DNA of 64,000 bases from a virus: IMG/VR virus record IMGVR_UViG_3300045988_020586. One strand, given 5' to 3'. The notes beneath the pieces are model-generated. The model saw only the letters and a list, made by a program, of their open reading frames with translations, had not been told where the DNA came from and ran no database searches. The position numbers were made by a program, and so were the translations under genes. Positions 1-51,609 of the stretch are shown here, piece after piece; the stretch's first letter is position 1, and every line of letters begins with the position of its first letter.

Positions 1-2
1 AA

Positions 3-893
3 GATCGAGCTAATAATACAAAGCTTTCTGCTGCATAGAGAAAATAGGGAAGAGATCATGCTGCATGGTGGAATAATGCCATTAAGTAGGCTGAAGTTAA
101 TCCTAATTCTCTTATGAAGAATGGTCTTGTACAGATTGATGAATATGGACAATATTAGCCATCTAGAAGACTTTTGAACGCAGATGGTTACGCAAGCTAT
201 ACAAATGTTGGAACATTCAATGATCCTAAGAAACTTGCTTAGGCTGCTGATAAACAGTATAGTGGATACATGTACAAGCCAACTGGTGGCTCTGCTGAAC
301 ATAAGGTGCTTTTAAATAAGTTTGCAGGAACAGAAAAGCAATAGCAATTTGAACTAATGCAGAATAAACACCTTGCTGTAAATTTCAAAGACTCTAACTT
401 AAGATATTCTCCGATTAGAAGAATAAATGTTACAGGCAACAAGAGACTTAGATATGCAACAACAATGCGTAAGTTTGATAGATGGCTTAAGAGTGGATCT
501 GCTGGTAGAGGGGCACTTGTAAACGAGGATCTTAATGCCGGATGGATACCAGGTAAACATAAGTAGTTCGATATAGCTGGACATGTTACAATTACTGGTA
601 AACAATTCAGTGAGTTCTGCGTATCAATCGGAGCTACTTCTAATAATAATAAAGCAAGGATAGCATCAGAACTTGGTCTTGATGCATTTGATGCAGCATC
701 TAAGCCTGTAACAAAGAAAGAAAAAGTTGGATCTGCTACATATTACTAGATACCTATGACTAGGACAATCCAGAACAACGGCGGGTTTAAAATTGGTGAA
801 TTCAACGATGATATAAACAAGGCAAAGTTTGGACAAAGTGCCGCATTTAAGATGGCTAATGATGCACAAAATTCTTCATTAATGATAAATTAA
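3..893 (+). CDS. 3' part (296 codons) of a large virion/ejection-module protein; open only if TAG is sense
   Basis: Frame 3 read codon by codon from nt 3 to TAA 891-893: 8 in-frame TAG, no TAA/TGA. Text is protein-like. Track ORF 357-566 is one fragment of it. Confidence 0.7.
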
Positions 894-902
894 TAAAATA
901 TT

Positions 903-3900
903 ATGGCAAATAAAAATAAAAAGACGTTTACATACAACTAGGCGTATAGTAGAGGAGCTTAGATAGCGTAGGATTTACAGCGTAGTATAGCACAAAGAAG
1001 TGCTGACTACGCCGCTCCTTATGTTGAGGGGAGTATGGGCGCCTATACAGATGTCAGCGATTTTAACAATATGACATTCCCTGCGTATACTACGCTGGAT
1101 AAACAGGGTAAAGCTGTTGTAGACACAGAAGAAGACAATAGTGGTTCTCTTGGTGATTTCCTTTTAGGAGATTCTTGGGACTTAAGTAAGATGAAAGAGA
1201 GATGGGATAAATTCTCTTTCAAGGATATGTATAGGCTTACATTCGAAAAGGGGTATGGAGCCTATGTAGACTCTAAAGAAAAAGAACTTGATAATGTTAC
1301 TTTTCAATAGAGTTCTTTAAAAGTAGCTTAGGACTACAATAATCTTCTAAAACAAAGAGAAGACCTTATAAATCAATATAAAGCCTTTAAGAGTCATGGA
1401 TACGCCTCAAAAGAATAGACTAGACAATTATAGGATGCTATTATAAAGGTAGATGATCAAGTTAAGAAATACCAGGATTTCTTTAAATAGCATAAGAACG
1501 ACGATGTATTTTTAGACTTGTTCTACGACACAAATAAAGCTGGAGCTAGCGATTATTTAGCTGCTCTTAAAGATAATACGTTAACTACTCATTAGTAGTT
1601 TAATACTAATGGTATTATTGGTACTATAAACAATGCATTAAAATACACAGCTGGTACATTGTCTGAAGGCCTTGAGAATATAGCACTTACTACATAGAAT
1701 GCTATAGGTAAGGTTCTTCCTTAGGCAATTGGTGGAGATAAAAATGGAACATTTATTAAACGCGCCATAAAGAATGGTACTAGTAATTACGATAATTTAT
1801 TTGAAGGATATTCAACAAAAAATGGATCGCAATTATTGCAGACAAAGATAAATGCCTTAAAAACTGATCTTGACAGAGAACAGAACAAGAAGGAGATTTC
1901 GTTAAGATCAGCCATAAATCAATATAAAAATGGTAACTGGCTATTTGATCCTAAGAAAATTAATCCGGAATTTAGAGACCTTTAGAATCAGAATAGAGGC
2001 GGTTTAATTGGTTCTATTATCGACCCTACGCAATGGGGTTATTCAATACCAGAGATGGGTACATCATACAGTGATGCTGCAAGCTTTGCAGGAATGATAG
2101 CAACTAATGCTGGTGGTGCATTAGCTACAAAAGCAGCTGTTAAATTTCTTACTAGAAAGATTCCTGGATTAGGTGCTGTGTTAACTGCTGAAGATATGGC
2201 AAAAGCTTTTAATTCTGCAGAAAATGCAGAGTAGGTTGCTAATGCATTAAGTAGAGTAGAATTGGCTAAAAATGTAATAGGTGGTTCTACTGCTGCAGCT
2301 GGAATGTATTGGACAAAACAAATGCGCTAGTCGGAGACTAATGGCGAAGCTATAAATGCTTTAGCACAAAGAGTTTTGGATTCTTCATATAAAACAGATG
2401 TAGATTTTAACAAGGTATTTAATGCTGTCGATTAGTATTCTAAGCGTATAGGTGTAGATTCAAAAGACCTTGATTAGCTTGAAAAAGTAAAGCTCGCATT
2501 AGCTTACAACATACCTACAGGTGATGCTAACTTCGATAAGATTAAAGTAGACTCTAGAAAGGGTTTGGCTAAACTTATAAACGATAACAACGCAATGGCG
2601 TTCGAGGATTATTTACAAGCTTTACCTTTTATGGATTATACGAGAGGAGTGATATCTAAGGCTGCTAACAACGTGTTTTCTAGAGCTCCAAAGATGTACA
2701 TATAGGATTAGGTATTAGATAAGGCTACAAAAGCTGCTGCTACCGGAGTTGTAGATAATGCTATAGATAGAGTAGCTATGAGTAAATTTAGCAATATAGG
2801 CGATAGACTTAAATTTGTTCATGGTTCAAAATATCTTGCAAAGAAATTTGAAAGAGCATTCCCTCTTGCTACATCAGAGGCACTTGAAGAAGGTAGACAG
2901 TAGTTACTTACATCTAGATTTGAAAGAGGAGAATATGATAACTACTCAACAGGTGAGTCTTCTTTTTATTTGCCAAGTGTATTTGATAACTAGTTCTTAA
3001 ACGCAGATGCTGCAGCAGCTTATCTTGGAATATCATCTGGAGATCCAGATAACGGCGACTCAGAGTTAAGAAGGTCAATGGAAATAGGAGCTATGACAGG
3101 ATTGCTGTTTAGAATTCCTCATAATGTTAAAAACCTATTAACTCCATACAGAGAAGATAGTACTAGCCCTTTTAGCTCAAGCGATAAGTATAGTTTAAGA
3201 AATACTATAGCATAGCTTAGAAACGATAATGTTATTCGTAGTATAGCTGCTAATAATTATCAACTTGCACAAGATAATGATCATGTAGGAATATTCTTTG
3301 ACGCATTTAGTAGAGCCGGTGTAAATAAAGATAGATTACAGACAGCTCTTGATGATATGAAAAAGTATAAAGGGTCTTTACTACAAGATGGTTCAGATAG
3401 TTATATAGAGAATGACAAAGAGCTTCTTAATGCTGCGTGGTTTGTATATAACAATAAGAACCTTGAATAGTCTATGAAAGATCTAAACATTTCTAGAAAT
3501 AGCGAGGATCATAAACAGCTCGTACAAGCAGCTACTAGAGTCATGATAGATTCTAACAACGCAGCAAAAGATTCCGAGAAAGCTAGAAACAACATTGATT
3601 CTATAATAAATAAGACTGTACAGGATTACGAAAATGCTACATAGGAGAACAATCCGGCATTGTTTAATATTATCAATAAAATAAAGCAGGACTACCAGAA
3701 GTTTAATGAATCTATAAACGCTAGAAGAAATCAATTCAAGAACTCTGAAGAAGGAAAGAAAGCTGGGCAAGAGTGGATCGATAAGAATGAAACTTATTAT
3801 GAAGATTATGCACAAAGAACACCTTTGGATAAGGCTATCGAAAACGCAATGAATGAACGTGATAAGTTCAAGGTTGATCCAGAGAATGAATATATATAGT

Positions 3901-6900
3901 CTAGACTTGAATCAATATTCAGCTATAGAGAGTATAAGGCAGCTCAGAAGTTATCTAAAGATCTGAAGGATTAGAAAAGAAGGCTCTAGTTGATATCTAA
4001 TGAAACTGGAACAGATATTAATACCGATAAGCTTACTGGAATGATTGATTATCTTGATAAGCTTATAGAAAACAGAAGAAGTAAAGTAGAGAACTCTAAG
4101 GAGATACTTGCATACAATGAGAAGGTTGACTTATTAAACGCTTCTATAAGCGATAAAAAGAAGTAGTATAAGAAGATAACTTATGATTCTATCTTTAAGG
4201 ATTATTAGAATTTTGATAACCAGGATGAAATAGATAAAGCTTATTAGGCGTTTCTTATAAACGATGCTTTATACAACGTGCTCAAACCAATGTCTGTAGC
4301 GTTTACTACTGGACAAGTTGACCCTAGATCTGTATATTTTTCTAGAAGAGAATAGAACTGGAGCGAATTATCTGATGAACAAAAATCCGAATTCACTAAA
4401 AAAGTATAGGGTTTATATCAAGAGCAAGGCAAACAAGCTCCAACTGAAGCGTAGATAAGAGCTGCATACTTAAACGAACAAAACAAGAAGAGAAAATTCA
4501 TAAAAGAGTTATCTAAAAAATACGCAGAATTAAGAGATAAGATTGAAGGCAATGATGATATATCTAATATGAGTATGGATGATATCGCTCGTCTTACTGA
4601 TATGGAAAGAGAGGCAGCTAGAGATCTTATTAGCTCAGTTCTTGCCGACAAAAAGAATCGTATGCGTATAGCTCGTAGAGAATGGAATCAAGAAAGACCA
4701 CTTACACCAGATGATGTTTAGCAAGCTGAAGAAGGTACCGCCGATGAAGAAGTGACTCAGAGAATCAAAGATCTTGCTGGTGAGCCTAAGAGTCCAGATG
4801 TCGAGAAAGAAGCTGAAGATATGAATGTTCAGCCAATATCTTAGGATAAGTCTGTGCTTGATACATCTGAGCTTGATGCAGCTATGGATAATTCCCAGAA
4901 AGGTTCTACAGAAAACGAAAGAAATCTCGAAGAGGCTTTGGGTATGAGTCCTGCTGAAGATAAATAGCAGCAGAAACTTAGAGAGAAGCAGCAGAAATAG
5001 AAGGTTAAAGATAAAGAATAGTCTGATTCTACTAATTTTACAGATGAGAAAGATGATAATGATAGCAACGAATTACCACCTGTACCAGACAATGTAACAA
5101 TTAATGGCGATGGAACTGTAACTGTAAAGCCAGAAAAGTCTCAAGAAGCTTAGCAAAATAGCACAGATACTGGTGTTTAGGATAATACTGAAAAATAGCC
5201 TGAACAATAGCAGGTACAAGAAGGTGAAGAGCCAGAAGATGGAGATAATGATAATTCTCCAGATTTGACTCCAGATAAGAACACTGCTGATACAGGTCTT
5301 AATATTGAATAGATTTAGGATGATCAGGACTTTCCTGACGACAATCCAGAGGATGATAACAACGATGGCATAGATCAGATTCCTTAGAAAGAAGGCAAGA
5401 CAGCGTAGGTTTTGAATCCTAGTGATATTGATGTTGAAGATACTTTAAATACAGAAAGCCCTTTAGAACACGAAGAGCCAGAAGTGTTACCTAAGAAGTA
5501 CGATGATAACGGAACTTTAAATATAGAAGATCTTCCAGAAAAGTTAGATGTAGATATATAGAGTGAGTCTGATACTCTTAGTGATATGGATAATCAAACT
5601 GAGTCAACTGATACATCTGGAGCATATGACGATAGAAAACCTAAGCCATGGGCTGTGCAGGAAGCAGAAGACATAGAAAGAAGATATGCTGATCATACAT
5701 TCTTCTATAGACCTGATGCGGAAGAACCTATGAAGATAAAGGTTAATGGTAAAGATGTGAAGTTGCCAGAAGGGTGCACTATTGGCACCGGTGCAGAACT
5801 TGCACAGAAACTTACTTAGAAAGGCTGGTTTGAAAAAGCTGACAAGTTCTATGTTGTGTCATAGATGTAGAAATACTAGGAAGGAAATATTGGTGACGAA
5901 AGAGATGTGTTCACAGTATCTTTAGCCATAAGAGATGGTAATAAAATATACTTCTCTACACTTAGGGCGTTAGGATAGTATCATGATAACTACAGAAAAA
6001 CAGACGTTGATCTTTCATACGAGCTCGCTAATAAACTTAAATTTATAGGCGTCGATATGGATGCCTACAAGGTCAATCTGTTTGAGACTGCTAAAAATTA
6101 TTACTTACTTCATAATAATGTTGATCAATCTCTTCTAGAAAACGATGATAAACTGAATAAGGAAGTAATAGATTGGTATAACAACCTACATGAAAGTGAT
6201 CCAGAAAACGCCGGTTAGATACGTGCATATATAGACGATACTGCTAGAAATAAGTCCGCTCTTCCAGGCAAGGTTCCTTTGACAAATAATTAGGTTACAC
6301 AGCAAATATAGAGACTTAGAGATAATAGAAACGCCATAATTGAAGCATATTGTACATTTAAGGATGGTAAGTATATAATACCATAGACTATTAGAACTGA
6401 TGTAAAGCCACAAGAATCAAGTATAAGTAACGGTAAAATATAGACTAGGCCAAAACTTGAAAATAATCTTGTTGATTTTAGACCTCTTACAGAGAAAGAT
6501 TTAAATCTTGATATTCCTTCTGATCCAGAAGAACTTACAATGAAGCTTGAGAATGGCGCTATAACACTTGGTTATGGTACTGGAGTAATGGCTGATGAAG
6601 GTAACAGATTCCTTATTCGTAACCTCTACAATCCTTCTGGAGATACAATAGACGGTAAAGGCTATTCTGGTAAATTGTACTTTACAATAACCGGTCCTAG
6701 TGGATATGTTGTTCCTATAATGCTTAGAGAAGAAAGATTCAACTAGGTTTAGGGCAAAGATGGTAAGATGCAGTTTATTGATCCTGTTAATATGTAGTTA
6801 GCTATAGATCCAAATACAGGAAAGATAAATAGAAACACCCCATTATCTATGGCTGAGCTTATACTGTATATGGTTACCGGTAAGATTAATCCAGAAGAAT

Positions 6901-9900
6901 TTGAAGGAAACCAGGGACTTATTGCAGATTTACTTGCGTTAAGTGTTCATACTACGTTTGCTACTAAAGCTGACAAAAAACATCCGTATTTAGCTTCTAA
7001 GCAGTTCTATTTCGACGATGAGAAGAACTAGCTTGTGTTAACTCAACCAGGCACTAGATAGGATTTAAGATTGTCTATGGATTAGTTGTTTGGTGATTAG
7101 TCTGAGAAGACAAGAAGGTCTACTATTAGATACATAGCAAACAATTTACACTGGAACACAGATAAAGAAGACATGGTTGAACATTTTAATAAATCTATGC
7201 CTAAATTATCTGCGTTCTTAAGATAGTATTTTGAAGATAATCCAAAAGCTAAGTCATATAAATTCTTTGGTCTTAATCAGCTCGAATTTAAGAGAGACGA
7301 GTTGTTCTCTACAAACAAGAATGGTTAGCTTAATCCTAAAAATGTATCACTTGCTGCATGGATGATAAATAATGGCAAACTTCTTACAGACTTAGCTCCA
7401 CAGCATTTCTACGCTCCATTTATATACTCTGACGGAGTACAGGCTTCAACAAAAAAGAAGGCTGTAGCAAAGGTAAAGAGAGAAAGTAAAAAGTAGGAGT
7501 ATCCTAGTGCAATTGAGGCAGAGGCAAATATAGCGGCAAAGAGATTTACTGACGATGCTATAAGCAGAATGCAGAGTAGATATAAAAATAATTCATAGAA
7601 GCAGAAGGTTACTAAAGATGATTTCTTAGTTCTGTCTGATGATGCTAGAAAAGATGTGCTAAACAACTATAGAAAACGTGGTATATATGATATAGTTGTA
7701 ATCGATGTACTTAAAGAGGATGTAGAAGGTAAATCATTAGACGAAGTTAAACATATTATTGCATAGCATGTATAGAAATATGTAGACTACGCTAATTCTT
7801 AGGAAGGTTAGAAGTTTGATGTAAAAGATCTTACTTTCGTATCTGATACTATGCTGAAGAATATTACGAGCAAAGGCTATGTTCCTATACTTAATGTCGG
7901 TGTAAATGGGAAGCTTCATATAAATGCATAGGATCCATTGTCTATACTTCGCAACAACAAGGTTAGGTAGGATGGATATACTGGAGTATTCTCTAGATTC
8001 AAATCAAAAGGAAAATTTGACGAGAAAGCTGCTAGAAAGTGGCTTAGCGAAAAGCTTGGATTAGATGATACTAAAGTAATCGTTCTTGACGGAGTTCTTA
8101 AAAGCTGCGAAAATAGTAAAGTATATGGTATAACAAGTCTTGCGGCAGATTATATAGATAGATAGATTAATGGTGTTATTACTTTATCAAATGAGGCTGG
8201 ATATGGTATTCATTATCATGAGGCATGGCACTACGTTAACTTATTGTTAAACAATAAAGCTCAGAGGCTTAGATTATATGATGCTTACATTAAATCACAC
8301 AACTTAAAGAATATCACATTTGGAGAAGTTGAAGAGTTAATGGCTGAAGACTTCCGTAGATATGCAGAAATGCGAAACGGAAAGGGAATCGTTAACACGA
8401 TCAAGAGATTGTATAATAATATACTTGATTTTGTAAATGTATCAAGAAAGAAAGATATTGTACGCAATGTATTTAACGCAATTAATAATGGACAGTACTT
8501 CGACGTACATATGGATAAAGACTCTATAAAAGAGTTTGAGAATAGATATCCAAACGGCGTGACTTCAGCAGACTACTATGTGCCTACTGTAGATCAATCT
8601 ACTCTTGATAAGCTTGAAGGAATAAAGGATTATCATACATTCTATCAGTGTGGTGTAGCCTTGGCACAGAAGTTGTTAAGCGATTACGGATTTAAAACTC
8701 CAAACGATATTAATAGTAAAAAAGTATCTAAATTCAATGATCTTATTGAAGACTTAAAGAATAATAATGAGTTTGAATCAGATCCGTTAAAGCAATCTAT
8801 AATAAACGATATTTGTAATAATCCTAAGGCTTTTGAAGGTATTGTAGCCAATGTGTTTGCTTAGTATGGAATAAAGGCTAATGTAAAGAAATTCTCCTAG
8901 ATGGATGAGACTAATGATCTTACGAATAAAGATTCTATAAATGATGACGATTAGTCTAGAGATATTGGCGATAGAGCAGATAATACTTGGGACGTAATGT
9001 AGTTATCTATAAGCAAAAAAGACAACGTAGCATTTAGAGCTAAGCTTTTCTTAAGCCTTATAGAAAAAGGTAAGTTTGTTCTTGATCCAGAAACAGGAGA
9101 GCGTGAGTACGAGACATAGTTTAATGATATTATTAACGATGTTCCTTTGTATTGGAGCTATAGTGAAGCATGGAGCTCTATATTGAAGAATTTATGGATG
9201 TGCGAATCTTATGATAACATAGATCCGAATACTGGCGTATTTGCAGCCAATTCAATTAGAGGCAAGGTTAAATAGCTCGCTGATAGAAAGATGGCTTTAT
9301 TTGTTTCTCTTAACGATAAGCTTGAAGAAGTAGAAGGCGATATAGAGCTTGAGAACTAGATACTTGCTACAGTAAAGAGTTCTTATAACCAGGTAGCATA
9401 GATTTGGCTTAATGATCCAGTAGAGAAATCTATGGGCATTATGGATTTGCCAGAAGATATGGTATCATCTGTAGTAGAAGTACCTACTGACGAGAAGCGT
9501 ACGTGGGAGATAAGAAATGATAACACACTCAAGGCAAAGAGAAACTAGCCACGTTTATGGAGCTAGGAATTTGCTTCTTCTAATGTAATTATTTCTAAAG
9601 ATGGATAGACTATTATAAATCCAGAGTATGTAGACACACTTGTAAAGATGCGCCAGGATGCTATAGATCTTTCCAAAGTTCTCAATGAGCCTACTATCCA
9701 AGATTTATCTTCGGCTTACGATGAAGCTGCTACATAGGTTGTTAAAATTCTTAACTACATTGGTATACCATTCGATAGAGAAACACTTGATGCTTATACA
9801 TATTAGGTAAAGGATGAATCTAATGGTAAAAATCCTATGTTAGCATAGCTTTAGGCCTTACAAATGATGCTTGGCGGCTCCATGTAGAAGAAAAATGGAT

Positions 9901-12900
9901 CAAAAAACAACTATAAATGGAAGACTAATAAGTAGACTGGCTCTTTGTCATACTTTATTGATTTGCTTGATAAATATAAAGGTCAACCTTATCTTGAAAC
10001 TAAACAGTCAAAGAGAAATAAGGATGTTGTTACAGTTGATCAGCTGTTTGTTGGATACGGTTTAAAGACACCTATATCAAAGATGGCTGAGGTTTATGCG
10101 CAGACTAACCCATCTTCTACCGATGTAAGTATTAAAGGACCAGATGGAGCTACATTATACCCTATAAGTGAAAATAATGAAGCTTCTGATAAACTTCGTC
10201 ATATAAATGATAATAAGGATGGAGTTGTTGAATAGATGATGCTATCACCATATGCTAAGCATAGTTCTATTCTTAATATAGCTAGAAATGATCAGCTTGG
10301 AGATAGGCCTGGAGATAATACAAATAAGTTTAAACTTAATGCATTTGTTGGAATAAAAGATACCAGAGAGAATACTGGAGACGATTACTTTGGAATAACA
10401 CCTCTTGCAGACTATATTTCAAAGATGGTTATGAAACATAATAACATGCTTGTATTCCCTACAATGGCTGATAAAAAGACATGGTATTCTATATCTTACG
10501 ATCCTCTTACAAAGGATGCCGAAGGCAAGATATTGTCTGACGGTTTATGTGTACATGACCTTATCACATATAACCATACAGATGAAGCTGGTAAATGGAA
10601 TGCCTTAAGATTCTCCGAAGGTACTCTTAATAGATTTGTTGGATATTTCAACGATGAGCTTGAATCGCTTAAACAATACTACGATAGAAAGAATATAGCA
10701 TACTTTGTAAATAATCCTGGAAGAGCAAGAGATAATTTCCACGGTAAAATTAAAGATGGTAGAATGGATATGGCCGGAAACGGCGGAATGTTCAGATACT
10801 TCTATGACGCTATAAAGATAAAGGATGATAACGGTAAGGAGATGAATCTTAACCAATATCTTGAATTCCTTTACAATAAACAGTAGGCTATAGAAAAGAA
10901 TCCTGTTAAGAACGGTGGTCTTGGTACCATAAGAGAAGGAGCTAACGAACTTGATGGATTTGAGCTTGTAAGAAGATACATAAATGAGCTTAGTGATTAG
11001 GTTAAATCAGATCCATCTATGCTTAAAGACGGTATAAATCATATGCTTATATCTAGGGTCAGTGATGAGTTCTAGACTATATCTGACGATGGTTCTACAA
11101 AGGTTGTTTACTTTGATGGTAAAACATATCTTCCTAGAGCCATACCTGTGCAGATACTTGATTACTATCATAATAGATTCGGAAAGAGTGGAAGAGTATT
11201 ATCTGACTACTATGAGGACGAAGCTGGTAATGTTGCTGATTGTACATTGTCTGCAATAGCCAATAATGTAGCAAACGAAATGATATCCACAATAGAGCTT
11301 GAGAAAGTATTTACTGGAGACCCTGCTTATTACAAATGGCAGTACAACAGAAAGATTCTTGACAAATTTACTGTAGATGGTAGTACTTAGGAAGTAAGAA
11401 GATTGACTGCTAAGGATGCTGATAAGATTAAACGTTTAGGAGCTATACTTTCTCCAGGACAGAATCTTAGAACAGAATATTCTGATAGAGAGATACAAGA
11501 ATTTAAAGACCCTATAAGCGGCAAAGAAGAGCTTAGAGGAAGTAAATATACAGTTCTCAATATAAACGATATTGTAGCTAGATCTAAGTTTATAAATGAC
11601 GTTTAGACTCAGTTTGGAAGACAGATACTTGCAGATGAGATTAGATCTAATCCAGAATGGTTTGACAAGATTGTTGAAAAAGAGTCTAAAAAGTCAGGTG
11701 AAAAACTTACAAGAGAAGGATAGATTACTAAGATGTATCTTAAAGATAATTATTACAAATCTATTCTTGATAAGGCTCCAAAGAGCGTAAAAGAAGCTGT
11801 TGATATTCGATCTAAACAACAGATGTCTCCATACGAAGAAATTACTGTATCAGATGCGTAGGTTTGTATCAGACCAGCCTTGTATAGAAAGATCCGTATG
11901 AACCTTGGTAACTGGACTACAGATCCAGATGAATCTGGATATTCTGACGAGGAGGCTTATAAGATACTTGAAACTGATGGTTCTTGGATGAATGATCCGG
12001 AGAAAGCTAGAAAGGTTAGCAAACTTTAGCTATTCCCTCTTAAGATGACTTACTTCAGTAATAGTCCTACAGAACTTGGTCCTGGTATATTCCAGAATCT
12101 TCCTGTGTATAATAAGATGGCTATTTTCCCTATGTTCAAGTATGCCACATAGAGTACATCTGGTAGATAGCTTTATGATCGCATGAACAAAGAGGGTAAT
12201 GAGATAGATATGACAGCATTTGAATCTGCTGTTAAAGTTGGTGACAACCAGAATAGATACTCTCCATATAATAAAGATGTAAAGATTATAGATGGAGATA
12301 TAACAACTATGGATGATGCTATCAACAATGAGTCTGACTAGTATATTGATAGATCTACAGGAGAAGTTAAAGCTAATACTACTGAAGGAAGTAAGCTTTC
12401 TGTACAGGTACAGGATCTTAATGGAATTCGTATGCAGCTCAATACCGATGCTCATGAGGCTACCGAAAGATCTATTGGTACACAGATGTTTAAACTTGCA
12501 TTCTCTAACTTGTTTGATAATCTTAAGTATGGTTTAAATAAAGCTGACTGGCAAGGTTAGAGTAAACCTTCTAGATATGGTAGAGAAATAAAAGCCGATC
12601 TTATGGCTTGTATTAATGCTATGACTATGCTTGGTATTAACAAAGTATAGGATAGATTCTATTCTTAGAATGATGAAGGTAGGTTTACTCATATAAACTA
12701 GAGATAGGTAAGAAACCTTGTAGAAACTATCGTTAAGAACAATGGACTTGGTGTATCTGCTGAAGAGATTATTCACAATGGCGGTGTTGTAGCATCACTT
12801 ATGTCTAGAAAGGTATTTGAACAAAGCGTATTCTCTGCAGTTAGTAAAGATGTAATAGATATACAAACCAAAGGAGGCTCTGCTGTCCAGCAATCTATAT

Positions 12901-15900
12901 TTGGCTTTACAGGATTTGATGATAATAGTGTTAGATCTTACGAAGACGGCGATTATCATTTGCTTAACGGCGGTAGAGAGATTAGATGGAATACATAGAA
13001 TGGTAGTATGGAAGTTATGCTTTCTATCAACTTCTTTAGACCAGTTGTTCCTCAAGAGTATCAGAATACGTATGGTATGATGAGACAGTGGCTTATCGAC
13101 CATGATGTTATTAATGGTAAAAAGACTGATGGCTCTCAATCTCATCCTAAACCTTTTGGTATTGGCTATCGTATTCCTACGCAGGGTATGTCGTCTATGT
13201 TCGCTATGACAGTAGCAGATGTGCTTCCTACACAATCTGGTGACACAATAGTAGTACCTAGAGAGTTTACCGCTTAGACTGGTTCTGACTTCGATGTCGA
13301 TAAACTGTTTATTGCTACTATGTCTTACACAAATGGTGAATTAGATACTATTACAGAAGAGTAGGAAAAATAGATATCAGATATATTCTCTAGTAAAGTA
13401 AAAGGATCTAAGCAAAATGCAGTATAGAAAGTTTTACAGCAAGCTTCTTATGGAGCTATATAGAATAGATTGCTCAATAATTACATTGACATCATATCTG
13501 ACACAAGAAACTTCTCTAATGCACGTGCTTCTATTGATACAATTACAGACGTTATTAAGTCGTAGATTCTTCCTCACTTAAAGAGCGGATTAAACGAATA
13601 TAGACCATCTATGTATGAGCTTACTCCTTCATTCCAGTCTAGACGTAAGATGGAGTTCTCTACAGGTAAAGACGGTATTGGTCCATTCGCGTTGAACGTA
13701 ACAAATATGGCTCTTACATAGTTTACTCATTTGTCTATGAGATACGGAGATAATCAATTCGGATTCCATGACCTTGACTAGGTTCTTGGAGAAGATGGAG
13801 AACGTATTTCAGACTGGTTGTCAGCTATGGTTAATGCCCATGTGGACGTTGCCAAGGACCCATATATCTTTGACCTTAATATTAACTCTGCTACATATAA
13901 TCATGTAAACTTCTTACTTAGAGCAGGAAAAGGTAAGGCTACATTCTCATTTATCGCATAGCCAATACTTAAGAAGTACGGATAGTTAATGGGTTCCGCC
14001 AAGGGTACATTTGGAAAGAACTTCAAAGCTGACGGAAAATCTTAGGAATTAAATAACCATTCTTAGATATATAGTTATCTTCTTAATGTAACTAGACAGA
14101 ATCTTGCTGATAAGCTTGATTTAAATAAATTATATAATACATATAAGAGAAAATCCGGTGGTGTATCTTATTCTCTCAATGAAGATTATGTCAAGAAAAA
14201 TAGAGATGGAATCATTAAGGCTATTAAGAATTCATTAAAGTCCGATGGCGAAAAGAACTAGGATGTTATAAACAAGTATGCTACAGATATATTTAATCTT
14301 ATCATAAATAATGATAAAGATATACAGTGGAAAGATGCCATGAACTTTTAGAAGGGTGTTTATGCTATAGAACATGCCGATTCTACATTTGGCTTGTATT
14401 ACCAAATGCTGTCATTAAGATCATTTGGCAAGATAAAGACATATGCAGACGAGCTTGCAGACCTTGTAAAGGTGTCTAAGATCGACACAAAGAAGTTTGG
14501 TAATAACATTTCTTCACATATCAACTTTAAGAATACATACGAGCAGTTTAAGTATGGAGATCATAAGGTTGAGTGGTATATAAATGATGGCAATAAATAC
14601 GAGTAGAAGATAGACGAAAATACTGGAGAGGAATTGACTCCTACTGAGACAACAGCTGCTCTTATGAGATACTTCCATAATTTGTTCTTGGATTCTAAAT
14701 TCTACAATGCCACAGAGCTTGTATAGAGGATATTGTAGAACCAAACATTTTCAGCTACTCCTTTGTATGCTAATTTGCTTAGAACAGCTCTCGCTAGCTT
14801 AAATGCTGATGAATAGTTCTAGGGGTATACGAAATGGAGATTTGACAAGGATGGTAATTATACTGGAACTCCTTATGACGGATACAAATAGGTAATGAAA
14901 GATGATGTCGTGCAAGCTATTGGTTCATCAATAGAAAGTATGTTAAGATTCTAGGCATTACTTGATTTTGCTCCAAAGATTGAGGCGACAGATGATTACA
15001 CTGGTCCTATAGACTTTACGTTTGGTGGAGATAGATAGGAAATAGAAAGGAATTACAAAAGAATTCTGTATGGAGATAAAGAAGGAGATGAATATGATAG
15101 AAATACAATATTCTAGAACCTTGCTAATCTTATGTAGAGCATAATAGATGATCCGGATTCAGATGATGCTCAAGGCCTTGTAGATTAGGATGGTGTTATC
15201 AGTAACGAATTATTTGAATATCTTAGACCATAGACTGGAATAAAAGGTTCAAGCGTAGGAAGAATGATGCTTTCGAAGACTTAGATGAATGTTGGAGTAG
15301 AACAGAAATAGAGGCTTATGTCTGCATTCGATTAGCTGTTGACTCATCCGTCTGAAAGAGTTAGAAGAGTAGCTAGGGATTTAGCTATATATGCATACTA
15401 TTCTACATACGATACTAATAGCGCTTATTCTTTCTCTGATATAATTCCACCTAAATATAGACATCAATATGATAGAGCTCTTAGCTTAGCTCTTGATTCT
15501 AGAACCAGAAACGGATATCAGCATAAGTCTTTAGGAGACGCTTAGGCTATGGCTAACGATATTCTTGATGTAATAGCAAGAAACCTTTATAAGAATGATG
15601 ACGTTGTTCCTATGTATTTCGAAGATAAAAAAGATATTATTAAATACGAAGGAACTATTCTTAAAGTTGATGGTATAAAGAAGAAGGTTAATGCTCTTCT
15701 TATTTCTAATTCTAGAAGTATACCTAAATCTAGGTACTTTAAGATTAAACGAGGAGATCAGTATGTTGTTTATAGATATGCAGGTACAATCGAAGGTTTG
15801 AATAAAGAAAATAAAGCATTAGAAACTAAGAGAGTTTATATGATTGTTCCTAAGTTTGGATTATAGATAAAAGGAACATAGTTGTACGAATTTATGTAGG

Positions 15901-17024
15901 GTTCTGAAGGTATTTCTATATTCGACGAAAACAAATTACCTAGTACATTTAAGGCGGATAAACTTTTAGATTACGCTGAACAATATGCGAAGGATCTTAC
16001 AGAGTCTTTGTCTAAAGATTAGAAGAATAGAAAATCTAAGCCAAAAGACGAATCTAAACAAGTTGTTATGTACAGATTTTCTTCAACAATAAATCCTATG
16101 AAGATAAACGGTTCGTATTACGAAGTTAACCCTAACGATAATAAGCTTAATAACAAGGTTACAAACGAAGATGGTTCTGTAGAATTTGTATCAGCTATTA
16201 ATCCTATTAATAAGATTGAGCAGGACATAAAAAGTTCTGGAGTTGATATAAATATCAACAATGCTAATTTACAGCAGATTGTTGAATAGATACAATCAAG
16301 ACAGAGTATCGGAATATATAGTTTTATACATTTCAATGGAGATATATCCAAGTTTGAACCATCTAAAAAGCAGGTAAGCGATTATATCACATAGAAAGAA
16401 AGTGAATATGAAGACACCCTCGCTTCAGATTTAACTAAAGCTCAACGCAGATAGTTTATAGCAGAATACTCTAAGAAACTCAAAGATGAAGCTCCAGGCG
16501 TATTGTTGCAGAAGAATGTAAACGACAAGGTTGATTCTATTGTAAAGGATTTAATTTCATCAAATGTAACAAACTTTACAATATTATCTACCGGTGATGG
16601 TGTTATAGAGCAAGCTGGAGCACATTCAGCTATGCTTAATCAGTCTAATATAACATCTACACTTGGACCTTGTAGGGTATATATTCTCGGCAAAACTATG
16701 AGTAATCCGGAGTCTTTGGAAGCTGAAAAGTAGAAATATATACTTGATGATGTTGATGTTAAAACTGATGAACAAAAAAGTACCGAAGATGATATAAATA
16801 TGTTGTAGGATGCAGCTGACAACGCTGTTACAAATATCGAAGATATTTAGAACGCACAGTCTGCAGATGATCTGTTATCATAGATAAAGGATTAGGATAA
16901 ACAAGAGTCTGCTCCTAGTGTTGATAATCCTAACGAAACTGCTGGTAGTTTAGATGATTTATTGTCCTAGATTGGTGCTTTGTCAGAAGAGTCTAAAGAA
17001 ACAAATGATAATAAAAACTGTTAA
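903..17024 (+). CDS. Giant (5,373-codon) virion protein with a crAss-type two-barrel RNA polymerase domain; TAG read as sense
   Basis: ATG 903 to TAA 17022-17024. All 17 track ORFs from 1035 to 16503 lie in this one frame. Every codon read by eye: TAG is the only stop triplet in frame (25 in the first ~1000 codons). DFDVD at 13287-13301, flanked by ..IPTQGMSSMFAMTVADVLP.. and ..SAMVNAHVDVAKDPYIF.. Confidence 0.8.
13287..13301 (+). other. DFDVD (DFDxD) putative catalytic metal-binding motif of the virion RNA polymerase domain
   Basis: Codons gac ttc gat gtc gat, about residue 4129 of the giant ORF. DFDxD is the signature reported for crAss-like virion RNAPs such as Cellulophaga phage phi14:2 gp66. 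Confidence 0.6.
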
Positions 17025-17026
17025 TT

Positions 17027-20000
17027 ATGTTTTGTCCTTATTATAAAAATAAAGATGTTTTTGATGGCTTTAACAGTATAATATAGGCACTTGGTGGTAA
17101 ACCAATGACAGAAGAGGAATTTAGGTCCGCAGAGCTGAGAAATCAGCGACGCGGGCTTGATTACTCTGCTATGGAAGCAGCCTATAAAGCCTATCATGCT
17201 AATAATGGTAATCTTATGGATTTAGCTCCAAATGGCTAGCCATCATTAGTATTTCAACAGCTATTGTAGATATACAATGGAGATATAAATAAAGCCATAA
17301 AAGCTAAAACTAATTTATATTCAAAGACGTTTAGAAAGCACTTTGGAGATTGGCTTAGCGATAGTATCAGTAAGGATAAAGTTGATATTAACGGAGAGCC
17401 TATACTTCCTTTTGGGGAGTCATTAGAAAAAGCAAAAGCTTCTGCTTCACTTAGGTCAAAGATTGGTATACAAAACAAATTTAAGAGAGCTAATGTATAT
17501 TCTACTTTTGGAGAATCTATATCAAGTGCTTTATAGAGTGGTAAAGAATAGTCTAGTAAAGATATTGTTTCCAGATTCTCATAGTTGAGATTATTCTCTC
17601 CGTAGAACGAAAAGCTTGCAGAAGTTTTATAGCGTCATGAAATACCTACTGTTTTCAAAAATCATGAAGATGGTAGCCTAATGAAGGCTTATACAATAAA
17701 TGGTAAAAGCGCAATATCTATTGATCCATAGTTAGCTAACAATGTATCTAACCAGTATTTGGCTGATACATATCTACATGAGATAATACATACTATAACA
17801 ACAGATCCTATAAATGACGCAAAAACTAAGGAAGATATTAAATTCAGAGACTAGAATAGGAAAGTATTTAATATATTTAGTAAGTTGTTTCCTAAGGAAT
17901 TATTTAGCAGAATGGATATGTCTGGCCTTTACTATTGTCTTGAAAACGAAAAAGAGTTTGCTTCTGAATTCGCTACAAGACAAGATGTAAGAAGCATGCT
18001 GTACCAGAGAGCTATTCTTGAAGATAAAAAGAATAACAAGGCTCCAATTCTTGCGTTAAAAAACCTTGTAAATAGCCTATCTAGATTATTAGCAAACAGT
18101 AATGTATTTAACACAAATAAAGACCAATTAAAGCTGTATTAGAATACTGCAGCGTCTTATCTATTTAATAGGCCTATTCTTAAATTTGAAGGCTTGTAGG
18201 CGTCTAAAATAATCCAGGAAGTATATAAATCTTTAGATAATTCTGTTCTATCAAACGACCAGATATAGTAGACTAGAGAAGATTTGATCAGATCAACTAA
18301 TTATGCAGAAGTTAATAATTCTATGCGAGTTGATAGAATTAATTATAACGATCTTGGACTTAATACACGAGACTCTGAAGAGATAGCTTAGAAGAGGATA
18401 GAAGAAATGTGTAGCAACATAGCCACTGCCTTATCAAAGAGACAGGCTGCTATTAAAGTATCTTAGCTTCCAGAAGAGTATAAGAGTGAGAATATAGAAA
18501 TACTTAGGTCTCAAGTTTAGTCTTTTAAAGACCGACTTGGAGGAACGTTTTATTCAATAGCTAGTCTTGTACAATAGATTGCACCATAGCTTCTTGTTGA
18601 TTCAAAAAAGATACACAAGATAAGACAAGATAATATGACTATAAGCGATGCTGAGTACATGTTCTTGACACACGATAACTTTGGTACATATTAGAAGATT
18701 TTGTCAGAGATTAATAGCGCTCTTAATTCTCCTACTGTAATAGATTTACTCATAAAAGAACTTGAAGATAAACCGCAACAGGATAGAGCCACTTCTAACG
18801 ATATACAAAGAATAATCTAGATTGTACAAAGTTCAGAAGCTGTAGCAGCAGATGCCACATCTCTTATGTCGGAGATTCTTGTCAATAACATGAAGAAAAG
18901 ATTTGCATAGATAGGTAATGATGTCCATTCTCCTACAATAGCAGATTATATTAATCACCTTAAGACTATAGGATATGATACAAGCTGGTTCTACACTACT
19001 GTAGGTTCTATGGATTCTGCAAAAGACGAAGCTTTAAGAGCAATGGCTTATCTTATAGATAAGGCTACTCATAAAGCTGATAGAGACACTCATGATAGAA
19101 TAGTAGAACTTATGTAGCTTAAAGAATAGCTCAAGTTTGGCGAAAGTGTTCTTGATCTTTATGAGGTTGATGATAATGGGTTTACTACAGGTTACTTAGT
19201 AAGAGCCTTGAATTATGGTAAATTTTTCAGAAAGAGATAGGAGTTTATGGAAAAGCTTAATCTCAAATACGGATTGGATCCATCTAATAGAGAGTAGCCA
19301 AAAGGCGATGATGGTGTAAAATGGAGTAAAGAAGTAAATGACTGGTTAAGCAAAAACTGCCATAGGAAATACAAGAAAGAATACTATGAAGCATTTGCTA
19401 ACCTTTCTGCCGATACTATGAGAGCACGCGATTCTATCTAGATATAGATTAAAGCTATAAAGTCAAGATGTAAAGATGAGTTTGGAAACTATCATTTTGA
19501 TAGACTTACAGATTCTGAATGGAATACACTTAGAGGATTATATATACAAAAGAAATAGTTGGCTTCAGACTATGATGTAAATGGAGATCTTAAGATAGAA
19601 GGTACTCCAGAATATCGTATGGCTAAAGAGCTTTAGAAACTGAACGAGACTCTCTTTAATTCTTCCGATAAAGTTAAAAAGGATACAAAGAGATGGTAGG
19701 CTGACAGAGATAAGATTATCTAGGAATGTGGTGGTCTTGAAGAAATGGCTAAAGGAGAAGATGGTAATTTCGATTTCGATAAGCTTAGAAAATGGGACTC
19801 AAGAAATAGTAAAACTAGACTTAAGGTAAATGAAGAGACAGGTAAAGCATTGCTCTGGGAAACTATTGACAATGAAGTAGAAAAGCCTGTATATGCAATA
19901 ATTGTAGACGAAGTTAGCGACCATGGAGCTAGATATGAAGAATTGTAGCAACAGAAGTATAATATACTGTCTACATACAGAGATTACAATACCGGTGATA

Positions 20001-22864
20001 TAAATCCTTCTAAATTATAGAAGTCTATACAGAATAAAATACAAGAAATAGACAAAGAGTTAGCTAAGATTAGAAAGCAAGCTGTAAGAGAGGATAAAGA
20101 TTTAAAAAAGCTTGCTAAAAATCGTGCAAAAATTTTTAGAAAATACGCTAAATCTTCATTGACTGATGTGTATAAAGAAATGCGTAGATTGGCAGTTCTT
20201 AGAGACAAGGATGAGCCAGGCTATCTTGATACATTCGAAAGAAATACAGGTAGACTCGTAGAGGACGTAGAAGGAGAAATATCATGGTAGGCTAAACCTT
20301 GGTTTAGAAAAGTAGTCGCAAAGCAGGCTTACTACGACAGATTTATGGAAGTATTGCCAGGAGATGGTTATCTTAACTCTGATGAGAACAATGATTTGCT
20401 CGATAAGGATTTCGACGAGAGTTACGGATAGGCATTTGTGCCAAAGAAGGAATTATACGACAATTCTAATTAGTATAACAAGATTGTTAAATCGAAAACC
20501 CTTAAAGCTCTTTATGATAAGACATATCAAACAATTAAAGAGTCTAACGAATTGTAGACAAATAGAAACTATGTAGACAATTATCTTCTTCCATAGATAA
20601 CTGGCTCATTCTTTAAATACCTTAAAAAGCATAGCGGCAAATGGAGAATGGCTTGGGACTTTATCAAAACTGGAAATGTAGACCCATCTTCTTCTGGAGG
20701 TGCTCTTAGAGAATATTTCAAAGATACTGTTGGTATTGGAGAGAAAGGATGGGAGCAAGATGGCACATACGGATAGTTTATTGATTAGGCGTTGTCTGAC
20801 TAGGATTAGTTTGGGGATATCATCAACTCAAAAGATCCTACGTTCGGTAGCGAAATAAGTGGAGAGCGTCCAGATGGTAGACAGCTTAATATGATACCAC
20901 AGTACTATACCAGAAGACTTAAGGATACATCATAGCTTTCGTCTGATTTAATAGGTATACTTGGAGAGTACTACAACTAGTCTTAGAAATATAAGAACAA
21001 GAAGTAGATAGAAGCTACGTGCGAATCTATGGTTGATATGATTGAGAATAGAAATCATGAAAAGGTATCAATTACTGGTAGCATAGGTAATCTTAAGAGA
21101 ACTACTAGAAATGTTACTGGAAAGTCTTCTAATACATATAAGGCTGCTAGAAAATTCTTGGATATGAACCTATATAACATACGTTCTTCAAGAATGTAGG
21201 TAAACATATTCGGCAGATAGGTTAATATGGGCAAGATAGCTCAGTTATTTAGGGCTGCTACAACACTCGTAAACCTTGGCTGTAATATAGCTGTAGCCGG
21301 AACTGGTTTTACTACTGCTATATGGGCACATGTTGTAAATTCTATAGTTGGATAGAAATATAGTTTTTCAGATGCCTGCGCTGCCACTAGATTCGTCTTA
21401 CATCATTTGGTTGAAAATGGCATGGGCGCCAAATATATAGAAGATCGCAATTCTAAAGACCTATTGATGCTTATAATGGAGCATTTTAATATAGCAAGTC
21501 AGCTTGAGAGAAAAATGAAGGATTCGAATAGAAATAAGTTCATAAATGCCATAACTCATAACTGGGCATTCGGCGGTCTTACTATGTTTGACTTTTGTGC
21601 TAAGGCTCCTATAGCTATTTCTACTATAATGTCTTACAGATATTACAATGGAGAATTTACAACCAAGGATGACGTTATAATGAATAATATCCTTAATCCA
21701 GAAGAAGCTAAAAAGCGGATTAAAGAATGGAAAAAAGGAAAGAGTTTGCTGTCTATTATGAAAGAATAGAATGGTAAGCTTACTGTAGATAAACAGTATT
21801 ACAAATAGTATAAACAGATAGAAGACGTACTCCATTCTAGAATTGAGAGATATGCAGAAAATGCAGATGGTATGGCTACCGAATCACAAAAAGCTGCTAT
21901 TACAACAAATGCATTAGGTGCCGCAGTTTTAGTTCATAGGCAATATTTCCCTCTTATGCTTCAAGAGAGATTCGGCGATACTGTATGGGATAATTCTACT
22001 TAGCAATTTAAAGGCGGTTCATTTAGGTCTGGATTACAATTACTCAATGTGCTGTCTAAAGGATATTCTGATGAAGTAAACCTATAGAACTTTTAGGTGA
22101 ACAGAAAGAAGTCAGTCTTAACCGGTCTTGCAACAGGTGCAGCATTAGGCTCGTTTTTACCTATTGTAGGCCCTATGGCTGGTGTTGCTATAGGTTCTGC
22201 AATTGGCGCATTATTGGGCGCTAGAGCGAAAAATTCTAGGTCTTTACAGAGATATTTGTACGACAATTCATCAGAAAATTAGGCTAGATTGTGCAGATTT
22301 AGACGTCAGCAATTAAAACGTCTTGCGACTGAAATCGCTTTATACAAACTAGTTGTTTGCCCTGCTGTTGCCTTAATATGTGCATATGCCGACTCTGATG
22401 ATGATAATAAATTAATGTAGCTACTTGCATATATTGCTGTACGTACAAAATGGGAGGTATTCACTCCTTATCGTTTTGATGATGCATTAAATAACTTTAA
22501 ATCTGTATCAGCGTAGACTGGTACTTTGGATGCTTTTTAGAGCGTTGCTAAATCCGTTCCGGAATACGCATTATATTCCATCATGCCTCGAGGATCGCTA
22601 TTGGATACTTTCCTAGGTGGCTCCTTTAACGATTATGATTCAAGTATATAGCGAGGTATTTACTCTGATTACAATATTCCATTTACAGATACTGAATGGA
22701 ATAAAGCTTCAAGAGATATATTCAAAGCAACACCATTTCATCATGCTTATGAACAAATTCTTGACTCAAAGAGTAAAAGAAGCTATTACGAAAATCAAAT
22801 CATTCAAAATAAATCTTCAGATGACCCATTATATAATTGGGCTTTGGATAAGTTTAGTAAATAA
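17027..22864 (+). CDS. 1,945-codon virion/ejection protein with HExxH zincin motif and C-terminal Gly/Ala-rich hydrophobic segment; TAG read as sense
   Basis: ATG 17027 lies 2 nt after the previous stop; tandem TAA TAA at 22862-22867. Track ORFs 17885, 19745, 21407 and 22097 share this frame. Read by eye, only TAG interrupts it. HEIIH at 17777-17791; ..LTGLATGAALGSFLPIVGPMAGVAIGSAIGALLGA.. at 22097-22240. Confidence 0.75.
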
Positions 22865-33483: not shown

Positions 33484-33485
33484 AG

Positions 33486-33558
33486 TAGTTCTAACCGGAT
33501 TCGAACCGATGACCTCCGGGTTATCTACCCGGTGCTCTGGCCACTGAGCTATAGAACT
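33486..33558 (-). tRNA. tRNA with anticodon GAU (Ile) and an unusual anticodon loop UAGAUAA (A at position 33)
   Basis: Full cloverleaf folded by hand: acceptor AGTTCTA/TAGAACT, D arm GCTC-AGTGGCCA-GAGC, anticodon stem CCGGG/CCCGG, T arm ATCGG-TTCGAAT-CCGGT. The 3' end lies 2 nt from the polB ATG. Confidence 0.75.
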
Positions 33559-33767
33559 GACCCCGTCGGGTCTGCATGACATACACGATATGTGCGGACG
33601 CTGATTGATGTTTTACGTCTTTCGGTACCTTTCTCGCTGCCACATATCAGTACCACATGTTGTCCCTAGTGAGGGTTTGCACCTCGCAGTCATATCCTTT
33701 CGGAGCACACTAGGGTGACCAGTGGTGTCCTGGTCTATTCCATTAACAGTAGGGAAGTTCGTATAAT

Positions 33768-51492: not shown

Positions 51493-51609
51493 TGAGGTCT
51501 ATTCGCGCTTTGAGTAATGAATCAGACTACACCATGATGCAACATGTGTAGTTTCGTCTAGGTCTCATCAGTGATGATTTTAGACTCTCCCTAGCTGAGT
51601 TTAAATAAA

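Follow-up and report, generated by a model that had tools for sequence, protein, structure and literature searches.

How much of a 5,373-codon reading frame in a phage genome is RNA polymerase (RNAP), what makes up the remainder, and is the whole truly a single gene? These questions arise near one end of a 64,000-nucleotide stretch of viral DNA, the window, taken from IMG/VR record IMGVR_UViG_3300045988_020586. The first-pass annotation, made from the sequence alone, had seen a virion RNAP fused with its upstream neighbours, in all approximately 4,100 residues, and had placed the product among the largest phage proteins. The features that we recognise in and around this giant ORF are listed in Table 1.

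The frame itself is as first described. With TAG taken as sense it runs uninterrupted on the plus strand from ATG at 903 to TAA at 17022–17024, contains 153 in-frame TAG codons and no TAA or TGA, and has an in-frame TAA at 894, just 5' of its start; from the base composition of the window, the probability of zero TAA or TGA across 5,373 codons is approximately 1e-122. Rfam identifies no intron and no other RNA inside 903–17024, and a Kyte-Doolittle scan of the giant protein detects nothing resembling a transmembrane segment. Read in the standard code the same span splits into fragments, none longer than 216 aa, and no amber-suppressor tRNA is found within the 64-kb window, approximately 40 kb of the genome lying beyond it. 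Both observations would suit an artefactual long ORF, arising either because TAG is a true stop and the locus holds many short genes, or because an assembly or indel error has joined two genes. We regard this as extremely improbable, and the genome comparisons that follow already effectively refute it.

In phage cr7_1 (Burzaovirus coli; Suoliviridae, Oafivirinae) the counterpart of the giant ORF is KNV53_gp32 (YP_010112776.1; 5,443 aa), annotated 'hypothetical protein' and identical over the full length at 91.6% of DNA and approximately 93% of protein positions. Start, stop, neighbours (gp31 upstream, gp33 downstream) and TAG recoding are shared, the cr7_1 gene having 148 TAG codons, and the nine indels between the two genes are all in frame. 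A 40-mer taken from the start of the window recurs in one IMG/VR contig only; this second relative is 92.7% identical and keeps the frame open across all 3,270 codons present. A 40-mer from the other end of the window has no IMG/VR match. The frame is thus preserved in two independent genomes of approximately 92% identity, with every indel a multiple of three, which argues strongly against the assembly or indel error that the first-pass annotation had left to be checked. Codon differences from cr7_1 are mostly synonymous (876, against 313 nonsynonymous), and the synonymous class is the larger in all 250-codon bins but the C-terminal tail, a pattern that shows purifying selection on the giant ORF; homology and selection both continue through all 153 TAGs. 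In cr7_1, 117 of these TAGs align with TAG, and 24 of the 36 that differ are CAG or CAA. Because TAG is exchanged mainly with CAG and CAA, and because cr7_1 encodes a tRNA with a CTA anticodon, the comparison supports TAG as a sense codon predicted to be read as glutamine (genetic code 15 type); TAG would then make up half of the Gln codons predicted for the giant ORF, even though the window has no suppressor tRNA. The syntenic tRNA site in the window carries a different insert instead, and suppressor tRNAs of the cr7_1 type were found in six other IMG/VR contigs only. Minus-strand early/middle ORFs of the window (approximately 23–56 kb) are mostly without TAG.

The gene is widespread. A single CDS of 4,400–5,443 aa is annotated in ten Suoliviridae RefSeq genomes representing five subfamilies; four of the ten use the standard code, and their single ORF (4,460–4,946 aa) has no internal stop of any kind, which further contradicts an artefact. 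Seven such CDSs (cr6_1 gp36, 4,400 aa; cr10_1 gp32, 4,460; cr115_1 gp52, 4,493; cr1_1 gp076, 4,551; cr53_1 gp57, 4,645; cr50_1 gp059, 4,774; cr118_1 gp14, 4,946) have the same module order as the giant ORF, namely an N-terminal domain, an acidic or variable region, HExxH, and DFDxD some 1,480–1,540 residues further on, within the same gene neighbourhood. They are 23–32% identical to the giant ORF and 430–970 residues shorter, a difference that lies mostly in reduced variable regions; four of the seven use the standard code. The single ORF with N-terminal cargo module, HExxH and DFDxD in this order is therefore found here and conserved across the Suoliviridae examined, and none of the related genomes compared has stops or restarts inside the span; a single CDS was seen throughout.

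Metagenomic proteins extend this picture. A search of 1.84 billion proteins with an HExxH-module query (the longest TAG-free stretch, window 8166–8861) gave 356 matches; among the best 150 cluster representatives with the module, 57 reach 4,000 aa or more and 27 reach 5,000 aa or more, the maximum being 6,320 aa, and DFDxD lies mostly 1,400–1,900 residues past HExxH. A word-indexed protein search returned seven matches to a 232-aa query and one fragment to a 1,111-aa query, the latter probably swamped by low-complexity words. In the literature, giant proteins "up to ~6000 aa" and a "single huge polyprotein, likely cleaved", in which RNAP and its cargo neighbours are joined, are already in print. 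The giant fusion is real, typical of Suoliviridae and already known, and it is common in public data at 4,000–6,320 aa. Since it is annotated in a 92%-identical RefSeq phage and present in every Suoliviridae genome checked, the gene is ordinary for its group, and the impression of something unusual for the lineage has to be given up; larger versions are on record.

Table 1. Features of the giant ORF and its neighbours; nucleotide positions are those of the window and aa positions those of the giant ORF.
Feature	Residues	Nucleotides	Strand	Remarks
Upstream gene, 3' part		1..893	+	Corresponds to cr7_1 gp31 residues 379–636, 95% identity (blastp); separate gene
Giant ORF	1–5373	903..17024	+
N-terminal module	1 to ~2580	903..8640 (end approximate)	+	Collinear with crAss001 gp47 (profile-profile hhalign)
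Conserved N-terminal domain	339–908	1917..3626	+	Within aa 1–1300, the part best conserved among Suoliviridae
Acidic low-complexity region	~1265–1590	4695..5672	+	Poorly conserved, length-variable
HExxH module	2371–2542	8013..8528	+	Candidate zincin-like metallopeptidase
Junction of gp47-like and RNAP parts	~2545–2625	8535..8780 (approximate)	+	Inferred from end of gp47 match and start of gp66 match
Virion RNAP module	2626–4549	8778..14549	+	Aligned with phi14:2 gp66 residues 159–1767
DFDVD catalytic motif	4129–4133	13287..13301	+	Aligned to DFDID 1361–1365 of gp66 (6VR4)
C-terminal extension beyond gp66-like part	~4961–5373	15783..17021	+	Acidic, fast-evolving tail
Downstream gene	1,945 aa	17027..22864	+	60 TAG codons; homologous to phi14:2 gp65/crAss001 gp49 RNAP-associated cargo protein

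By homology, the giant ORF contains a crAss-type virion RNAP of the phi14:2 gp66/crAss001 gp50 family. The family profile matches gp66 with an hhalign probability of 100% (E 5.3e-52), phmmer retrieves PDB chain 6vr4_A (E 9.2e-19; chain residues 1126–1385 and 1488–1672), and tblastn matches the module to the RNAP genes of phi14:2, crAss001 and p-crAssphage, so that the RNAP-domain homology on which the original reading depended is indeed present. The alignment spans the regions of gp66 that hold the double-psi beta-barrels and the connector, and TGSDFDVDKLF (aa 4126–4136) aligns with GSDFDIDKMY of 6VR4. The DFDVD motif, whose original placement was exact, occurs also in crAss001 gp50, in p-crAssphage (56% identity over 50 residues) and in all Suoliviridae homologues; it lies approximately 1,500 residues into the module, comparable to residue 1361 in gp66 and residue 1483 in gp50. 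Some 50 residues before it, cr7_1 has an 83-residue in-frame insertion, absent from the window, whose resemblance to an alpha-subunit C-terminal domain falls narrowly short of the Pfam cut-off (RNA_pol_A_CTD, E 7.8e-5). Judged by length, the RNAP module probably reaches approximately aa 4960, and it lies where the late/virion gene block ends, adjoining the gp65/gp49-type gene. The C-terminal extension, which has a net charge of -20 over aa 5201–5373, showed no homology outside Suoliviridae. Because the RNAP module begins at approximately residue 2,600, with DFDVD approximately 1,500 residues inside it, the fused extra amounts to approximately 2,600 residues instead of the 4,100 first proposed.

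What precedes the polymerase resembles crAss001 gp47, a separate virion cargo protein of 2,341 aa, at both ends: aa 339–908 align with gp47 126–694 (hhalign probability 89%, E 2e-6), and aa 2371–2542, including HExxH...E, with gp47 2096–2300 (99.6%, E 4.5e-25). Residues 900–2370 have no detectable similarity to gp47, which aligns at its two ends only. Profile-profile comparison alone reached these unfused gp47-type proteins; jackhmmer from residues 1–2420 did not. Phage phi14:2 gp67, which is without HExxH, has a direct similarity to the N-terminal module below significance and becomes visible only via the gp47-type profile (E 1.5e-5). Direct hhalign comparison of the family profile with phi14:2 gp67, gp68 and gp69, crAss001 gp46 and two p-crAssphage proteins of approximately 860 aa gave nothing significant. 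The giant protein, the following ORF and the fragment upstream had no significant Pfam or PHROGs matches either. The original idea of a polymerase fused with upstream neighbours therefore survives in part: the RNAP is joined to a protein that is separate elsewhere, but to one neighbour (gp47/gp67 type), not several, and two smaller upstream cargo-type genes as well as the downstream gp65/gp49-type gene remain unfused. The acidic spacer, first set at approximately 4700–5590, is real within the slightly different limits of Table 1. Net charge over aa 1201–1600 is -64, with D+E at 26–29%. In the family alignment, gaps are frequent and identity is low across the acidic region, where several of the indels relative to cr7_1 also fall.

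At the end of the gp47-like part lies the HExxH module. Its HEAWH (aa 2439–2443; nt 8217–8231) is followed by EELMAEDF (aa 2477–2484; nt 8331–8354), and across 38 aligned homologues HExxH is invariant and E-E-x-x-A-x-x-F nearly so; all giant homologues carry the HExxH motif. The nearly invariant E2477/E2478, on a predicted helix 34–35 residues past the second His of HExxH, fits in position a putative third zinc ligand (Glu) of the gluzincin type. An AlphaFold model of homologue P0154 (pLDDT 74) has strands and then the HExxH helix. Foldseek against the PDB found no solved structure, zincins included, at E<=0.001 for either HExxH-module model, a BFVD search with the module model returned crAss homologues only, and the module has no Pfam or PHROG match.

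The same parts are differently joined in other systems. Cellulophaga phage phi14:2 has three separate genes, gp67, gp66 and gp65 (1,797, 2,180 and 1,421 aa), in the same order; the giant ORF fuses two of these parts, its homology to gp66 including DFDxD, and the downstream ORF resembles gp65, including HExxH. The downstream gene, 96% identical to cr7_1 gp33, has its own HExxH (HEIIH, aa 251–255 of that protein; nt 17777–17791) and is matched by hhalign to gp65 with a probability of 98% (E 2e-13) and, across the HExxH region, of 92%, and to gp49 with one of 97.5%. In Bacteroides phage crAss001, gp50 is the protein that aligns with the RNAP module, and gp49 the one that aligns with the downstream ORF; gp47, gp50 and gp49 are separate genes, gp47 lying on the strand opposite gp50-gp49, and all three proteins are found in virions by mass spectrometry (PMC10172136). 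The p-crAssphage genome (CrAssphage LMMB) has in the same gene block a 4,070-aa 'RNAP catalytic subunit/RNAP subunit fusion protein' and a 1,957-aa 'RNAP associated protein/zincin protease fusion protein'. By annotation, then, RNAP and downstream partner are fused there while the HExxH protein is separate, the reverse of the giant ORF; our alignments to the C-terminal part of the 4,070-aa protein were below significance. Comparison of these genomes shows that the three cargo partners occur separately, as RNAP with the upstream partner, or (by annotation) as RNAP with the downstream one. That families differ in this way constitutes Rosetta-stone-type evidence that the three would act together.

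We consider it very probable that the giant ORF is a genuine late gene, belonging to a crAss-like phage of the Suoliviridae (Burzaovirus-like), with this architecture and a virion cargo role, a judgement that leaves any cleavage step out of account. Its product would be approximately 600 kDa, by arithmetic from 5,373 residues, and would consist of a module of approximately 2,400 residues equivalent to crAss001 gp47, including a long acidic disordered stretch; the conserved HExxH...E module, which in crAss001 is the C-terminal end of gp47; a single-chain virion RNAP of the phi14:2 gp66 type with a DFDVD active site; and a lineage-specific C-terminal extension. By analogy with the cultured relatives phi14:2 and crAss001, the protein would be packed in the capsid as cargo and ejected, before the DNA or together with it, into a Bacteroidota host, where the RNAP module would transcribe early genes, and the fusion would guarantee 1:1 packaging of both partners. 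Virion packaging and early-gene transcription by this type of RNAP are established only for phi14:2 and crAss001. No Suoliviridae phage has been cultured (PMC10136315).

Post-translational processing has been put forward as a hypothesis (Drobysheva et al., preprint). We tentatively suggest that the embedded HExxH module, or the downstream gp65-like one, may cut the polyprotein near residues 2545–2625 and so free the RNAP. Similarly tentative is the further idea, already floated in the literature and neither supported nor contradicted by our fold searches, that a candidate self-processing protease at the seam would cut the precursor only after packaging or ejection, switching on the virion RNAP; if true, the fusion would be a device for stoichiometric co-packaging and timed release. 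It may also be supposed, with a likelihood somewhat short of even, that the giant protein is never cleaved and acts whole, as a multi-domain machine that is ejected and whose N-terminal module aids envelope passage or anchoring while the C-terminal half transcribes, a reading that contests the cleavage step only and not the identity of the gene. The junction has no stop codon, intron or other feature and its sequence is ordinary and moderately conserved, neither a linker nor a cleavage motif being recognisable in it; the fused state is kept in all Suoliviridae subfamilies and dozens of metagenomic clusters. Large uncleaved virion RNAP fusions are also described for other phages (PMC13434306, PMC10770324): the N4-like virion RNAP (approximately 3,500 aa) and the tape-measure/RNAP fusion of Thermus phage P23-45 (5,002 aa) are giant virion-carried polymerases joined to non-polymerase parts and ejected into the host. 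These belong to unrelated lineages and architectures with no sequence similarity found, so the likeness is a functional analogy only. Steigviridae, however, encode both parts as separate genes, and because the crAss001 parts lie on opposite strands, covalent linkage is not needed for function; two invariant HExxH modules in the gene block, and published opinion, likewise favour cleavage.

Two products could also arise without proteolysis, were internal initiation or an internal transcript near nt 8,500–8,800 to yield the RNAP alone besides the full-length protein. We think this very improbable. Metagenomic proteins of 1,749–3,238 aa with HExxH near the N-terminus (P0066, P0076, P0090, P0112, P0151) suggest that in some lineages a gene may start just upstream of the module, but they may owe their length to contig ends, or to TAG being taken as a stop when genes were called in the standard code, and the RefSeq annotations have no internal gene.

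With the giant gene itself already on record, the use of the present analysis is to place the seam at approximately residues 2545–2625 and to identify the fused extra as one gp47-type protein. The invariant HExxH...E module at that seam is an obvious target for asking whether, and how, these proteins mature, a question that concerns the phages most abundant in the human gut.

The giant ORF (903-17024, +) is open in one frame from its ATG to the TAA at 17022-17024, as the first-pass annotation had reported with TAG read as sense; it has 5,373 sense codons, 153 of them TAG, and lacks both TAA and TGA; an in-frame TAA lies just before it, at 894. Given the base composition of the window, the probability of such a run without TAA or TGA is ~1e-122. 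The acidic spacer described at the same time is also present, with a net charge of -64 over residues 1201-1600. TAG accounts for about half of the putative glutamine codons of this ORF and is abundant in the leftmost plus-strand genes, with 60 in the next ORF. Its use is restricted to the plus-strand late/virion genes (1-22864), most minus-strand early and middle ORFs (23400-56500) having none, which is the distribution described for TAG-recoded crAss-like phages (PMC7886860; PMC10136315); this restriction is module-specific recoding as described for the Suoliviridae.

One close relative was found by megablast among GenBank phages, CrAssphage cr7_1 (NC_055895.1; Burzaovirus coli, Suoliviridae, Oafivirinae), at 91.6% identity across 100% of the span, and its counterpart is annotated in RefSeq as a single CDS (KNV53_gp32, 5,443 aa, 'hypothetical protein'). 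When the two genes were aligned by codon, cr7_1 had TAG opposite 117 of the window's TAGs and CAG or CAA opposite 24 of the other 36; the reverse comparison gave CAG or CAA in 22 of 29. All nine indels comprised whole codons, and codon differences were predominantly synonymous (876, against 313 nonsynonymous), with synonymous changes in excess in all 250-codon bins but the last. In a further relative, a contig from IMG/VR with 92.7% identity to the window, the ORF begins with the same MANKNKK and is open over all 3,270 readable codons. The strongest control on the reality of the ORF is provided by four standard-code Suoliviridae (cr118_1, cr10_1, cr50_1 and cr1_1), in which the homologue is a single ORF of 4,460-4,946 codons containing no TAG, TGA or TAA; the homologous ORF has 4,400-4,645 codons in the TAG-recoded cr6_1, cr115_1 and cr53_1. 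In none of these relatives is the span broken by a stop and restart. Since cr7_1, the IMG/VR relative and the standard-code genomes keep the frame, and Rfam detects no intron or other RNA within the ORF, these comparisons exclude an artefact for practical purposes. They show the giant ORF to be a real, selected gene, whose predicted product links a gp47-type cargo protein with the virion RNA polymerase (RNAP).

Pfam and PHROGs returned nothing in the giant protein, and the domain map therefore rests on comparison with crAss-like phages. A tblastn search with residues 3100-5373 recovered genes annotated as RNAP in phi14:2 (E 4e-20), crAss001 and p-crAssphage, along with ~100 further records, and the sole phmmer match in the PDB was 6VR4, the phi14:2 gp66 DNA-dependent RNA polymerase (E 9.2e-19), in which GSDFDIDKMY aligned with GSDFDVDKLF of the giant protein. 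A profile of six Suoliviridae proteins aligned residues 2626-4549 with gp66 residues 159-1767 (probability 100%, E 5.3e-52). The polymerase homology that the initial reading required around 12,000-15,500 is therefore present, and DFDVD lies at residues 4129-4133 (nt 13287-13301) as proposed. Because the gp66 alignment opens at residue 2626, the predicted start of the RNAP module is near residue 2,600, which puts DFDVD ~1,500 residues into the module, comparable to its position in gp66 (1361), crAss001 gp50 (1483) and p-crAssphage (1433). The cr7_1 polymerase carries an 83-residue in-frame insertion (gp32 residues 4064-4146; nt 20190-20438 of cr7_1) ~50 residues before DFDVD, which the window lacks at the equivalent point (residue 4077, nt ~13131). 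It matches Pfam RNA_pol_A_CTD just under the cut-off (E 7.8e-5; 22.8 bits against 23.8), and it recurs at this site in no fewer than five further giant homologues (cluster representatives P0009, P0010, P0038, P0040 and P0028). The difference is a presence/absence polymorphism of a putative alpha-CTD-like helix-hairpin-helix domain beside the active site.

Upstream of the polymerase, blastp matched residues 2424-2501 to the C-terminal end of crAss001 gp47 (E 6e-8). Profile-profile comparison extended this to residues 2371-2542 (gp47 2096-2300; 99.6%, E 4.5e-25) and added a collinear match of residues 339-908 (gp47 126-694; 89%, E 2e-6); it detected no match to gp47 in residues 900-2370, acidic region included. 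As gp47 is 2,341 aa long, its end maps to ~residue 2,580, and the seam falls at ~residues 2545-2625 (nt ~8535-8780). The downstream ORF (17027-22864) matches phi14:2 gp65 (98%, E 2e-13; its HExxH region separately at 92%) and crAss001 gp49 (97.5%), and window 1-893 holds the 3' part of a distinct gene of cr7_1 gp31 type. From the sequence of these matches, the block reads as gp31-type, fused gp47-type and RNAP, then gp65/gp49-type. The fusion proposed in the first-pass annotation is thus retained, but its upstream part is reduced from ~4,100 to ~2,600 residues and from several neighbours to one, of gp47 type.

The C-terminal end of the gp47-like part contains an HExxH module. Across 38 aligned homologues the H, E and H are invariant, and they are followed 34-41 residues later by a nearly invariant E-E-x-x-A-x-x-F. 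An AlphaFold model of residues 2422-2653 was wholly helical (pLDDT 79.8); that of a 52%-identical homologue with 145 extra upstream residues (pLDDT 74.4) had several strands, then the HExxH helix and a further pair of helices, an order that would be that expected of a minimal zincin. Neither model matched a solved structure significantly in Foldseek, and BFVD returned crAss homologues only, so we label the module a candidate zincin-like peptidase, in which the motif is present and a zincin fold is possible. The downstream protein has a second, unrelated-looking HExxH at its residue 251, a feature that it shares with gp65.

Residues 2422-2653, the longest TAG-free stretch, which includes the HExxH module, were also searched exhaustively against 1.84 billion cluster representatives, giving 356 matches. 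Among the best 150, 57 proteins are 4,000 aa or longer and 27 reach 5,000 aa or more (maximum 6,320), and in most DFDxD lies 1,400-1,900 residues past HExxH (+1,690 in the giant protein); a second group, of 2,000-2,400 aa with the module C-terminal, is the unfused gp47 type. A group of metagenomic homologues of 3,300-4,000 aa (P0047, P0056, P0082, P0098, P0106, P0149 and others) has the N-terminal module and HExxH and ends about where DFDxD would be expected. In some lineages the gene may be divided close to the active site, a situation reported for zeta-group crAss-like phages; alternatively, these proteins may be cut by contig ends.

Features of the window and their positions
Feature	Position	Strand	Remarks
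HEAWH	residues 2439-2443		HExxH instance
EELMAEDF	residues 2477-2484		E-E-x-x-A-x-x-F instance
tRNA-Ile (GAT)	33485-33558	-	same strand as, and inside 5' end of, 669-codon ORF 31573-33582
Group I intron	44728-45020	-	Rfam, above gathering score, 81 bits
RAGATH-1 hammerhead ribozyme	51520-51601	-	Rfam 71.9 bits (gathering score 56.3); early/middle gene region
Site of cr7_1 tRNA(CTA)	58956-60510		flanks conserved both sides; tRNA replaced by ~1.4-kb insert
tRNA, CAT anticodon	59125-59196	+	in ~1.4-kb insert; C1xA72 mismatch (initiator-like)
HNH endonuclease ORF, 300 aa	59414-60316	+	in ~1.4-kb insert
Group I intron	61316-61557	+	Rfam, above gathering score, 65 bits; in or beside HNH_3 endonuclease ORF 60769-61596

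The cr7_1 genome encodes a 72-nt amber suppressor tRNA (anticodon CTA; 'tRNA-Gln' in RefSeq), and no suppressor tRNA was found within the 64-kb window. The ORF overlapping tRNA-Ile probably has its true start downstream of the tRNA; cr7_1 is annotated with a shorter DNA polymerase CDS at this position.

The counterpart genes are three and separate in phi14:2, where they are co-directional, and in crAss001, where gp47 is on the opposite strand, whereas p-crAssphage LMMB has a 4,070-aa 'RNAP catalytic subunit/RNAP subunit fusion protein' adjoining a 1,957-aa 'RNAP associated protein/zincin protease fusion protein'. According to the Drobysheva et al. preprint, virions contain the orthologues of gp66 and of both its neighbours, and gp47, gp49 and gp50 were detected in crAss001 virions and treated as capsid cargo (Bayfield et al. 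2023). Cleavage of the giant protein near the seam is a tentative possibility, and it is about as likely that the protein works uncleaved as one machine; internal initiation within the ORF is a minor possibility. The giant fusion itself is typical of the family, annotated by RefSeq in a near-identical genome and already in the literature (Drobysheva et al. preprint; Yutin et al.). No Suoliviridae phage is in culture (PMC10136315); by analogy with phi14:2 and crAss001, the giant protein would be synthesised late, packaged in the capsid and ejected into the host, where its RNAP module would transcribe the early genes.
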